Source of the DNA: Myxococcales bacterium
GTDB taxonomy: Bacteria > Myxococcota > UBA727 > GCA-2721815
Reading direction: 5' to 3'
Assembly: GCA_002721815.1 (NCBI GenBank)
Contig: PBLQ01000046.1
Coordinates: forward strand, 2,688 to 66,687
DNA: 64,000 nucleotides
Shown here: in pieces, positions 41,335 to 61,811 of the stretch
How the letters are laid out: each line of letters opens with the position of its first letter
Numbering within the stretch: the stretch's first letter is position 1
Made by a program: the position numbers and the translations under genes
The notes under the pieces: generated by a model
Told to the model about the DNA's origin: nothing
What the model saw: only the letters and a program-made list of their open reading frames with translations
Database searches by the model: none

Positions 41335-43692
41335 GTGAAACCACTTTTGCATCTTTGGGGCTTGGTAACTTTTCTCCTTTTACTCTCGTGTGCCGAAGAG
41401 CCCGTGACCCGTTTCATGGGTCCTCAGCTGCTGGCCAACAGTCCGGTGCACTTCGGAGATGGCCCTAAGGGCGTGCGGCAAAGCGGTCGGCTCATCATCA
41501 CCAACGGTGGTGATTCCCCGCTTAAGATTGAAGACTTCAAGGTCACACCCGACGACGGGGTTTTCCAAGTGGGTATCTCAGAGCTGCCGTTGGAAGTCAG
41601 CGGACGACGCTCAAAAGAAATTTCGGTCCTGTTCACCCCTCCCAGCATTGGTTCTTTCCGCGCCGAACTTGCTTTTGATTCCAACCACGATGGCGATACA
41701 CTTTCCCCCATTGTTCTTTTGGGCAACGGTGTTTCGAATCAGGTATGTTTGCCTTGCAGCCCGCCTCCAGAGCCCGAGTGTCACTTGGACCAAACCTCTT
41801 CCATTGCTTTTGTCCCCAACCAGGGCACCGACTGTGAGAGCGACAACGGGGTTTGCTCCTACAATCAGGTGGAAACCCTTTGTGCGCCCCTGCTGTGCGA
41901 TCTGGAAACCGGGCTGTGTCCCGGCTCTTTACCCCCACCGCCCCCTGCCGTTTGTGGCGATGGCACCCTCCAAGAAGGTGAGGAATGCGATGACGGCAAC
42001 ACCGAAAATGGTGATGGCTGCGACAACAACTGCACCACCGAAGATGGGTGGGATTGTACCGCCCCCCCCTGTGAGCCCATATGCGGCGATGGCATCATCG
42101 CGGGCGATGAAGAATGCGATGACGGCAACACTGAAAGTGGTGATGGCTGCGGCAATAATTGCACCACCGAAGACGGATGGGACTGCACGAATCCGCCTTG
42201 TGAGCCTATCTGTGGCGATGGCATCATCACGGGCAATGAGGCTTGTGATGATGGAAACACCACCAATGGCGATGGTTGTTCCGAATCCTGCTCCACCGAA
42301 ATTGGTTGGGATTGTAGCGCTGGTGAATGTGAAGCGGTTTGTGGCGATGGCCAAACCCTGGGCGATGAAGAATGCGATGACGGGAACACAAGCATTGAAA
42401 CATGCGATTATGGGGCCGCCGCTTGCACAGTCTGCGGCACCGATTGCACCTTCGTTGCCGGCCTGACCCAATCGTGCGGCGATGGTACGCAACAGGCCAA
42501 CGAGGCATGCGACGATGGGATTGCCCAGGACGGTGGTGTGGGCAACAGCAACACCACACCCGATGCTTGCCGAGAAGACTGCACCCTTCCTATTTGTGGT
42601 GACAATGTCCAAGACAGCCAAGAACAGTGTGATGATGGCAACACCGACATCGAAGCCTGTGATTACGGTGAAAGCGATTGCACCGTTTGTGGCAGCCTTT
42701 GCACCCTCGTACCAGGGGTCACTCAGTCCTGTGGGGACGGGACCTTACAAGGCGCTGAAGAATGCGACGATGGGGTTGCCCATGATGGCGGTGTGGGCAA
42801 CAGCAACACCGCTCCCGATGCCTGTCGTGAAAATTGTACGCAGGCATACTGTGGCGATGGCATCCAAGACACCAACGAAGCGTGCGATCCCGGCAGCTCC
42901 GTTGATCTTTATTGTGCATACGGAGAGCCGAGCTGTTCCGTCTGCAATGAAAACTGTGAACAAGTGGATGGCTGGGCTCAGTTTTGTGGCGATGGCATGA
43001 TGCACGAAAACGAAGACTGTGATGATGGCACAGACCCCAACAGCGGCAACAGTGATGAAAGAGCAGATGCTTGTCGAACAACCTGCGTCGAGGCCAGCTG
43101 CGGCGATGGGTGGGTGGACTCCGGCGAACAGTGTGACGATGGCAACAACGACCTGGGCGATGGTTGTGATACCGCTTGCTTGGTTGAAGATGACTGGGAT
43201 TGCTTTGGCTCTCCGTCCGTTTGCGTCCCCCTCACTCCCGACGCGCCTGGTGAAACCTGCGAAACAGCAGCAGCCATTTTAGCCAGTTCTGGCTCCTTGA
43301 CTGGTTTTTACGGAGAAGAAAATAATTATGAGCCAGGGGATTTGGGCGACGGAACCAGCTGTACAGGTTACTACAATAACGATGGCCCAGAGGTGCTGTA
43401 CAGCATCACCATGAGCTCCGGTCAAAACCTGTACGTTGAAGCCAGCTCCACCAACAATGAACACGATATTTCAATCTACCTGTTGGACGGATGCCCGCCC
43501 GATGGCAACGCCTGTGTGATTGGAACCGATGTCTACTTTACCGGGGTGAGCACAACGCCCGAGTCCTTCAACTATTCCTGGTCTTCCAACACTGAGACCG
43601 AACGCACGTTCTATTTGGTGATCGATGCTTATTGCATGGACTCGTGTCCTACATCCTCCGACACGTTTGAACTCTACTGGGATCTTCAATAG
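41335..43692 (+). CDS. Array lipoprotein A1: Ig/8-Cys N-module + Myxococcus Cys-rich (DUF4215-like) repeats + shared C-domain
   Basis: Lipobox LLSC; ITNGG..PL.I Ig-like unit; about 10 CGDG...E.CDDGN repeats; ends YLVIDAYC...C...FELYW. Confidence 0.9.
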   Translation: MKPLLHLWGLVTFLLLLSCAEEPVTRFMGPQLLANSPVHFGDGPKGVRQSGRLIITNGGDSPLKIEDFKVTPDDGVFQVGISELPLEVSGRRSKEISVLFTPPSIGSFRAELAFDSNHDGDTLSPIVLLGNGVSNQVCLPCSPPPEPECHLDQTSSIAFVPNQGTDCESDNGVCSYNQVETLCAPLLCDLETGLCPGSLPPPPPAVCGDGTLQEGEECDDGNTENGDGCDNNCTTEDGWDCTAPPCEPICGDGIIAGDEECDDGNTESGDGCGNNCTTEDGWDCTNPPCEPICGDGIITGNEACDDGNTTNGDGCSESCSTEIGWDCSAGECEAVCGDGQTLGDEECDDGNTSIETCDYGAAACTVCGTDCTFVAGLTQSCGDGTQQANEACDDGIAQDGGVGNSNTTPDACREDCTLPICGDNVQDSQEQCDDGNTDIEACDYGESDCTVCGSLCTLVPGVTQSCGDGTLQGAEECDDGVAHDGGVGNSNTAPDACRENCTQAYCGDGIQDTNEACDPGSSVDLYCAYGEPSCSVCNENCEQVDGWAQFCGDGMMHENEDCDDGTDPNSGNSDERADACRTTCVEASCGDGWVDSGEQCDDGNNDLGDGCDTACLVEDDWDCFGSPSVCVPLTPDAPGETCETAAAILASSGSLTGFYGEENNYEPGDLGDGTSCTGYYNNDGPEVLYSITMSSGQNLYVEASSTNNEHDISIYLLDGCPPDGNACVIGTDVYFTGVSTTPESFNYSWSSNTETERTFYLVIDAYCMDSCPTSSDTFELYWDLQ

Positions 43693-43799
43693 TCCACCGT
43701 TCTAGCCCCTGATTTGGGCGATCGCACATCAGGTTTTTCGGTAACTTGTCGATGTATTCCATGAACACCCCTAATTCCGGAGATAAACCCCCGATTGAA

Positions 43800-43808
43800 T
43801 GGTATAAT
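43800..43808 (+). promoter_or_regulatory. Putative extended -10 promoter (TGnTATAAT) upstream of A2
   Basis: TGGTATAAT about 30 nt before ATG 43838. Confidence 0.45.
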
Positions 43809-60412: not shown

Positions 60413-60497
60413 GTTCGCGGCCGCACACGCCTCTGAGGCGCTTGCCTTTTCAAAAAGGCTTGGCATGGTTTCCCGGATTTCCACCAAGGAGGCCGCC

Positions 60498-61811
60498 TTG
60501 AAGCCAGCACCTTACATTTCTCTGCTTGTCCTGGCGCTTGCCTTATTCGCTGGATGCGAAGAAGAACCCATCAATCGAATTGTCCCGCCGCAACTCTTGG
60601 TGAACAGCCCCCTCAACTTTGGCAATAGCCCAATCGGCGTGCCGCAACGTGGACGTTTGGTTTTGGGGAACGCTGGTCAGGCCCGGTTGGAAATCAGTGA
60701 AATAATCTTGGATCCTGATGACAGCATCTTTGAGGTGGGTGCCGCAGAGATGCCACTCCTGGTCACGGGCAGTGGTGGCAACGAACTCATTCTCGTTTTC
60801 ACGCCCACTGAGGCCAAAGAATACCGAACCACACTCACCTTTGTCGCCAACCAGCCAGACAACCCCGCCACAACAGTGGTGCTCATGGGTGAAGGCGAAT
60901 CCAACATCATCTGCCACCCCTGCAATGAAGCCCCCGAATCCCAATGTCACGAAACCGAGGAGGGCATGCTGATCTATTTGCCCACCACCGACACCGATTG
61001 TGAAAACGAAAACGGATTTTGCGCTTATGAAATGATTTATGTCCCCTGTGACAATGGCCCGTGTGACCCCGAAACAGGATTATGTCCCGACACCCCTGTT
61101 CCCACTCGGGATGCGGGTGTACCCCCAGAGCCACAGGCCCCGTTCGATGCCGGTACCCAAACCATTGCCCAAGATGCCGGACAACCGGTGAGTGTTTCCG
61201 TTGACGCTGGGCAAAGCGTGATGATCATCGATGCGGGCATGCCTGCTTGGGACGCCGGACAACCCCCCATCGCCATCGATGCGGGCCCGATCTCGCCCGG
61301 CGGGGCCACTTGCTTAGAAGCCCCCCATCTCTTGGGGCCTTTGGGCATGCTGCAAGCTTATTACGATGACAGCAACGACTACCAAACCGCTTGGGTCACC
61401 GCCAACTGGTCAAGCGGCTGCACGAACCACAGTACCAGTGACGGCAATGAAGTGGTCTACGCCGTGGATCTGCCCATTGGGGCCACCTTAACCATCACTG
61501 TGAATGGCGAATGCGCGCAATGCGACCCCGACAACAACGAACGCATTGATGAGGTCATTTATCTGCTCAATACCTGCCCCTTGGATGGGGTGAGTTACGA
61601 CAATTCACTCAACAACTGCGTGGCCGGCGCCCAAGAAAACTTCGGTGTTTACCCAGATGAGATATCAGAAACCATGACTTACACCAACAACACTGGTTTC
61701 GAAGAAACGCTCTACGTGATCGTCGACGCATGGTGCAATGGTGGTAGTAATTACTGCCCGAGCAGCATCGATCCATTCACCCTCGAATGGCAAATTCAAC
61801 TGCCTTACTGA
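60498..61811 (+). CDS. Array lipoprotein A7: N-module + DAG linker + shared C-domain
   Basis: TTG start after AAGGAGG; lipobox FAGC; ends YVIVDAWC...C...FTLEW. Confidence 0.88.
   Translation: MKPAPYISLLVLALALFAGCEEEPINRIVPPQLLVNSPLNFGNSPIGVPQRGRLVLGNAGQARLEISEIILDPDDSIFEVGAAEMPLLVTGSGGNELILVFTPTEAKEYRTTLTFVANQPDNPATTVVLMGEGESNIICHPCNEAPESQCHETEEGMLIYLPTTDTDCENENGFCAYEMIYVPCDNGPCDPETGLCPDTPVPTRDAGVPPEPQAPFDAGTQTIAQDAGQPVSVSVDAGQSVMIIDAGMPAWDAGQPPIAIDAGPISPGGATCLEAPHLLGPLGMLQAYYDDSNDYQTAWVTANWSSGCTNHSTSDGNEVVYAVDLPIGATLTITVNGECAQCDPDNNERIDEVIYLLNTCPLDGVSYDNSLNNCVAGAQENFGVYPDEISETMTYTNNTGFEETLYVIVDAWCNGGSNYCPSSIDPFTLEWQIQLPY

Follow-up and report, generated by a model that had tools for sequence, protein, structure and literature searches.

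An immunoglobulin-like and eight-cysteine cassette at the N-terminus of tandem lipoproteins in a marine myxobacterium-like bacterium

We analyzed a stretch of 64,000 nucleotides from a marine myxobacterium-like bacterium (GenBank assembly GCA_002721815.1, contig PBLQ01000046.1, positions 2,688 to 66,687; hereafter the window), in which seven plus-strand genes, g1 to g7, stand in tandem at 41335-61811 with intergenic gaps of 22-145 bases. Each gene encodes a lipoprotein that starts with the same cassette, composed of a lipobox, an immunoglobulin-like (Ig) domain and a unit with eight cysteines (8-Cys unit). The 8-Cys unit is a real domain that is unnamed in the libraries searched and has no clear fold match, and it also occurs independently of the Ig domain. 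With somewhat better than even confidence, we propose that the cassette is a membrane-proximal pedestal holding variable heads off the membrane in a large family of lipid-anchored envelope proteins. The system is of an ordinary kind, modular envelope lipoproteins with shuffled heads, and not a new kind.

An initial annotation, made from the letters alone, had described seven paralogs sharing a lipobox, an Ig-like domain and an 8-Cys unit at the N-terminus, and alignment of all seven copies confirmed this. Among the first 222 residues of the seven proteins, 30 columns are invariant, including the lipobox Cys and eight further Cys. The stretch from the first to the eighth Cys of the unit measures exactly 58 residues in all seven proteins, without insertions or deletions, and follows the pattern C-x2-C-x7-C-x17-C-x6-C-x8-C-x4-C-x6-C. 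The annotation had allowed a spacing of x(17-19), which is actually x17 in all seven window copies, and its motif C..E.G.C.Y holds only loosely, g3 reading CESSNNQC; the end it gave, 61090, is close to the end of the seventh unit (61088). Comparison of the g1 module with the other six modules gave E-values of 1.3e-69 to 2.7e-35, far beyond chance, and module identity across the 21 pairs ranges from 31.8 to 58.7% (mean 44.1). Synonymous sites are saturated in 21 of 21 pairs (proportion of synonymous differences, pS, 0.69-0.86), so dN/dS is not computable and the most that can be stated is that the nonsynonymous proportion (pN, 0.27-0.48) is well below pS. By these values the duplicates are old and constrained, neither recent copies nor products of gene conversion.

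All seven open reading frames (ORFs) begin with a short charged stretch followed by a hydrophobic stretch and the lipobox Cys. Lipoboxes were identified by eye and by regular expression within approximately the first 35 residues of every protein, with the sequences LLSC, FAGC, IAGC, LVSC, LAGC, LASC and FAGC in g1 to g7, respectively. In g5 the better lipobox, LAGC, places the lipid Cys at codon 22, compared with codon 25 for the Cys that aligns with the other copies. The g7 ORF is open from a TTG at 60354; the ATG at 60465, past the g6 stop, yields a normal signal peptide. Assignment to the lipoproteins is supported both by the lipoboxes and by the modification enzymes: lgt (PF01790, E 7.2e-45) lies in the window at 11648-12505 on the minus strand, and lspA (PF01252) was found in the genome at 124.6 bits, above its cut-off. 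Lys at position +2 occurs in none of the seven window proteins (0/7). In Myxococcus xanthus, Lys at +2 retains lipoproteins in the inner membrane (PMC3222651), and by analogy with this rule from a distant relative a location at the outer membrane or surface is plausible. The proteins are probably located at the outer membrane or the cell surface.

The first half of the module had been likened to ASH/choice-of-anchor D (PapD-like) Ig domains, and structural as well as profile comparisons agree with this assignment. The Ig domain starts approximately 10-12 residues past the lipidated Cys. An AlphaFold 2 (AF2) model of the 179-residue cassette of Ig domain and unit reached a predicted local distance difference test (pLDDT) score of 92.3 and a predicted template modeling (pTM) score of 0.82. 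Foldseek with this model indicated a PapD-like beta-sandwich, with 105 PDB matches at E <= 0.001, the top one being HYDIN (2e6j, E 4.4e-7), with further matches to the ASH domains of CEP192 and OCRL, to MSP and to the Ig domain of Vibrio VesB (4lk4). Among the Pfam models, HYDIN_VesB_CFA65-like_Ig (PF22544, cut-off 25.5) is passed by g2 (27.4), g4 (26.4) and g6 (32.5), while g5 (25.4) and g1 (18.5) remain below the cut-off and g3 and g7 give no row. The ASH model (PF15780, cut-off 27) is passed by g2 (38.0), and g1, g3 and g7 fall short. By Pfam gathering cut-off, three of the seven copies pass at least one model of the PapD-like/ASH Ig superfamily. The NCBIfam model choice_anch_D (NF012200) matches all seven copies at 15.4-39.1 bits, under the curated cut-off of 45, which makes the window Ig copies divergent relatives and not members by the curated rule; among relatives elsewhere, three of the seven Ig-bearing cassette ORFs scanned pass this model (46.0-54.6 bits).

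The claim that the 8-Cys unit matches no recognized family was borne out in Pfam-A (2025 copy) and NCBIfam 20.0. Six of the seven isolated window units gave no row in Pfam at E <= 10, and the g1 unit gave two chance rows. No NCBIfam match overlies the unit in the seven full proteins, and L042 and L048, two relatives with tandem arrays of the unit, returned no families in either library. The unit is not a DUF4215/TIGR02232 repeat by these models: all their matches in g1-g3 lie downstream of it, and the isolated units give none at E <= 10. When PDB sequences were searched with the profile of the unit, the single row returned was at chance level (E 1.4). AF2 modeled the unit alone with a pLDDT of 89.2 and predicted three main strands, one short and two long; Foldseek of this model against the PDB gave no matches at E <= 0.001, the best having E 3.3. 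The best scores of an ESM Atlas look-up (0.78-0.80) correspond to chance, and all were to unnamed clusters, one of which carries a Myxococcota label. The literature searched, with subscription journals outside its scope, holds no description of the cassette or of the unit.

While the family of seven in the initial annotation is real, the genome carries 26 genes with the cassette. Searching the 4.6-Mb genome with the g1 module identified 26 places, 25 of them extending into the Cys unit, and profile searches of a six-frame ORF set likewise identified 26 ORFs with Ig domain and unit. Paralogs outside the window form tandem clusters on contigs C25 (~322.9-340.6 kb) and C14 (32.9-40.8 kb) or are single genes. 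The seven window genes form one clade of the tree together with the singletons on C42 and C22, divided into two sub-clades (g4/g5/g6/C42 and g1/g2/g3/g7/C22). The lipobox Cys and the eight Cys of the unit are invariant in the alignment of all 26 sequences (A3), where N39, P127 and Y158 are conserved at 90% or more. Divergent paralogs have a shorter hairpin, C-x2-C-x7-C-x13-15-C-x4-C-x8-C-x3-C-x4-6-C. The genome total is 36 units in 28 ORFs, 26 of which are of the cassette type. A lipoprotein without Ig domain, L020 (G000:C26:23506-25401, minus strand), has seven tandem units and a C-terminal lamin-tail domain; hhalign aligned the profile of the window units with six L020 repeats at 91.2% probability (E 9.9e-7, 42 columns). 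With 26 members and several tandem clusters in a 4.6-Mb genome, these proteins would constitute a major share of the surface repertoire of this organism. We also observed a second Cys one or two residues past the lipobox Cys, C-x(1,2)-C-[DE]-x-E, in g5 (54118-54129, LAGCSAC) and in about nine divergent paralogs (L003, L005, L007, L008, L009, L011, L013, L014 and L019), an odd ninth cysteine beside the lipid anchor.

A profile of the unit built from the 26 sequences (A4) was run on a sample of 400 genomes from across the phylum and matched in 122 of them at E <= 1e-4, many of these genomes having several unit matches within one reading frame. In the best 29 foreign loci, comprising 31 ORFs, an Ig domain precedes the unit in 20, within 10 residues in 18 of them, and the other 11 have no Ig domain and include two clostripain-like peptidases; most of the foreign ORFs start with a lipobox. 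Clostripain-family (C11) peptidases at L030 and L033, in other genomes of the phylum, have one 8-Cys unit near the N-terminus and no Ig domain. From a collection of 5.8 billion proteins, 98 matched the unit profile. An Ig domain directly precedes the unit in 42 (a single unit in 41 of these, eight units in the other) and is absent from 56, of which 53 are arrays of 2-21 units and three have one unit, a census whose bias is considered below. A lipobox-like motif is present in the first 45 residues of 69 of the 98 proteins, and 23, counted from the match table, contain a lamin-tail domain, in which the arrays often end, as L020 does. Named sources are Deltaproteobacteria, Myxococcales, Myxococcaceae or Bradymonadaceae bacteria.

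A narrow profile from the seven window sequences identified 26 proteins among 1.84 billion representatives at E <= 0.001, 23 of them true, namely cassette proteins or fragments. The remaining three (P0023, P0025 and P0026) were rejected as spurious, since they consist of low-complexity repeats and lack the Cys pattern. Since all 23 true matches are of the cassette type, the narrow form appears to be confined to close relatives, and the wide range emerged only with the 26-sequence profile. That the Ig and 8-Cys pair marks a family, as had been suggested, is upheld by the 26 paralogs and by the relatives across the phylum. The initial annotation had also named what would speak against its proposal: a Pfam entry for the unit, or a unit found mostly without the Ig domain in unrelated contexts. 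Half of this was found, as the unit is Ig-less in 56 of the 98 proteins, 53 of which are arrays; these contexts are not unrelated, because lipoproteins from this phylum once more make up the majority.

The regions behind the cassette are of a different character. The 60 residues that follow the unit are Pro-rich or consist of DAG repeats, and the heads behind these linkers are unrelated to one another. Cysteine-rich acidic repeats of the DUF4215/TIGR02232 type form the heads of g1-g3, g3 also having Laminin_G_3 domains; g4 has another Cys-rich repeat, g5 and g6 have leucine-rich repeats (LRR), and g7 is hardly more than a linker and the C-terminal domain common to g1-g3. RCC1 or FG-GAP propellers and TSP3 were found as heads in paralogs and relatives. 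Linkers of short "DAG(Q)" or "DSG" repeats were noted in g4 (52204-52500), g5 (54658-54900, including three copies of PDAGASPPSxTDAGQAVVLV), g6 (56735-56860) and g7 (61089-61330), while those of g1-g3 are a short Pro-rich stretch.

If the cassette is a pedestal, cleavage at the lipobox would leave the lipidated Cys as the anchor of the protein, with the PapD-like Ig domain following some 10-12 residues on. The Ig domain would pack against one small beta-rich domain, the 8-Cys unit, whose eight invariant Cys presumably form four locking disulfides. A flexible Pro-rich or DAG-repeat linker would come next, and then the variable head, such as LRR, LamG or DUF4215 arrays. The unit itself is most likely a rigid, free-standing stalk-building domain that forms rods of 2-21 copies elsewhere and caps the Ig domain as a single copy in the cassette. 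It is used singly behind an Ig domain and otherwise in long arrays, again in lipoproteins from this phylum, much as EGF, Sushi or the TraA Cys repeats are. This usage points to a structural piece of a stalk and away from a signal, and we infer a purely structural role for the cassette.

Several points weigh against a pedestal role. The M. xanthus sorting rule may fail in this distant relative, and the strict conservation of Ig domain and unit before unrelated heads could equally reflect a shared partner or a sorting function. The 42:56 split between Ig-linked and Ig-less proteins is a biased census, given that the profile was built from Ig-linked units and that ranking by total score favors arrays. 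Finally, 14 of 21 family ORFs have at least two acidic residues between +2 and +5, just behind the lipid Cys, compared with 75 of 746 others, a crude background which was defined by a lipobox-like regular expression and includes spurious frames; this enrichment hints at a signal over mere structure.

The acidic residues bear directly on another explanation, which we judge unlikely: the cassette, possibly together with these residues, may be an address tag read by a lipoprotein export or transfer machine, for surface placement or as outer-membrane exchange cargo. Acidic residues after the Cys are a surface-export signal of Bacteroidota lipoproteins, and in line with a tag the same N-terminal cassette stands before unrelated heads in the 26 paralogs and across the phylum. 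However, the background of the acidic-residue count includes spurious ORFs, and known lipoprotein sorting signals are short peptides rather than didomains of 180 residues. A unit that also occurs without Ig domain and in long arrays is ill-suited to a tag as well. No gene for a conserved partner or machine emerged next to the cassette genes, where no systematic search was made; the neighbors in the window are kinases, cyclic nucleotide monophosphate (cNMP)-binding proteins and housekeeping genes. It is quite improbable that a novel Myxococcota pathway recognizes lipoproteins by the lipobox-Ig-8-Cys cassette and its acidic residues and then flips or delivers them to the cell surface or selects them for outer-membrane exchange. 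If such a pathway existed, a single machine could present dozens of exchangeable heads, both adhesins and enzymes.

The cassette could instead be a binding module, for example with the unit acting as a CBM14/peritrophin-A-type domain for the bacterium's own exopolysaccharide, for peptidoglycan or for prey surfaces. A Foldseek-free structural scan of the unit across 48,161 PDB chains found 12 at Z >= 2, none of which reached Z 5, in a scan where Z < 8 may reflect merely a common arrangement. Six of these 12 chains are CBM14-type chitin binders or contain such domains: Avr4 (4z4a, Z 3.9, superposed on the unit with a root mean square deviation of 3.0 over 55 residues; and 6bn0, Z 3.5), EHEP (8in3, Z 3.2), which we take to contain peritrophin-type domains, Blo t 12 (Z 3.1), Der p 23 (Z 2.9) and the CBM14 of chitotriosidase (Z 2.5). 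This resemblance is a lead and not a finding. All Z scores are below 4, the Foldseek search reported above found nothing better than E 3.3, and in Pfam neither CBM_14 (PF01607) nor, apart from the two chance rows, any other family matches at E <= 10. The invariant non-Cys residues of the unit (PP, Y and G) look structural, and arrays of up to 21 copies suit a rod better than a lectin. A binding role therefore appears doubtful to us.

We consider it very unlikely that the cassette drives homo- or hetero-oligomerization among the paralogs to give mixed adhesin complexes: only the sharing of one conserved module by many paralogs in tandem clusters speaks for it, there is no positive evidence, fold constraints explain the conservation equally well, and a homodimer prediction with two cassette copies (179 residues, alignment A3) returned scores of 0.00 and 0.00, the mark being 0.42, a "no answer" result that is uninformative either way. 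The export, docking or oligomerization role proposed in the initial annotation is not supported, and no result here shows any of the three.

These proteins offer a ready scaffold for studying how the variable binding heads of predatory and social bacteria come to be placed on the envelope. The unit is a compact, confidently folding eight-cysteine domain, absent by name from the Pfam-A and NCBIfam releases searched, and is used in two regular ways, as one copy behind an Ig domain or in long arrays. Its definition would let annotators spot a large class of "hypothetical" lipoproteins of such bacteria. Positions of the genes, their modules and the copies of the C-terminal domain are listed in Table 1.

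Table 1. Positions of the seven lipoprotein genes, their N-terminal modules and the copies of the C-terminal domain
Feature	Position	Strand	Description
g1	41335-43692	+	785-aa lipoprotein: module, DUF4215/myxo_disulf_rpt array, shared C-terminal domain
g1 module	41389-41922	+	Lipobox Cys codon 19; Ig 41389-41745; 8-Cys unit 41740-41922
g2	43838-46054	+	738-aa lipoprotein: module, DUF4215 array, shared C-terminal domain
g2 module	43898-44431	+	Lipobox Cys codon 21; Ig 43898-44254; 8-Cys unit 44249-44431
g3	46116-51578	+	1820-aa lipoprotein: module, DUF4215 array with Laminin_G_3 domains, shared C-terminal domain
g3 module	46173-46706	+	Lipobox Cys codon 20; Ig 46173-46529; 8-Cys unit 46524-46706
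g4	51601-53940	+	779-aa lipoprotein: module, DSG/DAG-rich linker, other Cys-rich repeats (Dicty_CTDC below cut-off)
g4 module	51673-52203	+	Lipobox Cys codon 25; Ig 51673-52026; 8-Cys unit 52021-52203
g5	54055-56061	+	668-aa lipoprotein: module, DAG-repeat linker, LRR head
g5 module	54127-54657	+	Aligned Cys codon 25; Ig 54127-54480; 8-Cys unit 54475-54657
g6	56135-60412	+	1425-aa lipoprotein: module, DAG-repeat linker, several LRR blocks
g6 module	56201-56734	+	Lipobox Cys codon 23; Ig 56201-56557; 8-Cys unit 56552-56734
g7	60465-61811	+	448-aa lipoprotein: module, DAG-repeat linker, shared C-terminal domain
g7 module	60555-61088	+	Lipobox Cys; Ig 60555-60911; 8-Cys unit 60906-61088
C-terminal domain copies	43200-43692, 45570-46054, 51080-51578, 61320-61811	+	Ends of g1, g2, g3 and g7
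C-terminal domain copy	62639-63280	-	In lipoprotein 62639-63769
C-terminal domain copy	G000:C46:66368-67117	-	Next gene, running off the window end

The C-terminal domain comprises approximately 160 residues and ends in "...TFYLVIDAWC...CP...F.L.W.I". Six strong copies were found, all at this locus, and the domain has no match in Pfam or in PDB sequences. The two minus-strand genes with this domain are without the Ig and 8-Cys cassette. The C-terminal part of g4 (52500-53940) has about six repeats of approximately 57 residues with the pattern C-NxPPxxQ-C...G-x-C...G-x-C-x-Y...C-x-DGD-x-C...ND-x-C..G-x-C, which score 21.6 with Dicty_CTDC against a cut-off of 27. The first half of these repeats resembles an 8-Cys unit with a shortened hairpin. 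We tried these repeats (CNNPPNPQC...) as further copies of the unit and rejected them as a mere resemblance, the hidden Markov model of the unit giving independent E-values of 4.8 or worse.

Several neighboring genes were also noted. Immediately 5' of g1 lies a gene for a Ser/Thr kinase of 1131 residues with AAA_16 and TPR regions (37804-41199, plus strand), preceded by two genes for cNMP-binding proteins (36008-36838 and 36933-37760). Three genes for peptidyl-prolyl isomerases of the SurA/PpiC type stand in a row at 31616-34760 on the minus strand. At 28163-30546 on the plus strand, a gene resembling FAD-dependent monooxygenases or halogenases is followed by a type III polyketide synthase of the chalcone/stilbene synthase family, possibly representing a small natural-product pair.

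Among known systems, the Ig half belongs to the PapD-like/ASH superfamily, while the unit belongs to no named family among those tested. The window proteins share the fold of the choice-of-anchor D, ASH and HYDIN-VesB Ig domains (NF012200; PF15780, PF22544, PF22073) over the first ~115 mature residues as well as the N-x-G...L-x-I signature, and the profile search also draws in multi-Ig "choice-of-anchor D domain-containing" proteins. Unlike in those systems, the Ig domain of the window proteins is present in one copy, directly after the lipobox, and is always followed by the 8-Cys unit. The unit itself is comparable to EGF, Sushi/CCP and DUF4215/myxo_disulf_rpt (TIGR02232), small all-beta modules with invariant Cys that occur singly or in tandem in extracellular proteins, and DUF4215 arrays coexist with it in g1-g3. 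It differs from them in having 8 Cys in ~55-60 residues, a PP motif and a G-x-C-x-Y core, and none of their profiles matches it. With CBM14/peritrophin-A, represented by Avr4, the unit has in common a similar size and a small disulfide-rich beta arrangement, and these domains are its best, if weak, structural matches. There is no sequence or profile similarity, however, the Z score is far under the level showing kinship, and CBM14 domains have six Cys rather than eight.

TraA, the outer-membrane-exchange receptor of M. xanthus, combines a type I signal and a PA14-like variable domain at the N-terminus with Cys repeats and a C-terminal MYXO-CTERM anchor, and its recognition part is polymorphic with a paralog-rich evolution (PMC6372800). 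The window proteins have the opposite polarity: their lipobox anchor is N-terminal, their base is conserved and their heads lie toward the C-terminus. The two share no domains and their Cys repeats are of different kinds; PA14, TIGR04201 and MYXO-CTERM were not found in the seven proteins at E <= 0.01 in Pfam and E <= 0.1 in NCBIfam. Both nevertheless appear to follow a Myxococcota cell-surface design in which a variable recognition domain is combined with a Cys-rich stalk and a lipid or sorting anchor, and TraA is the nearest studied counterpart in design.

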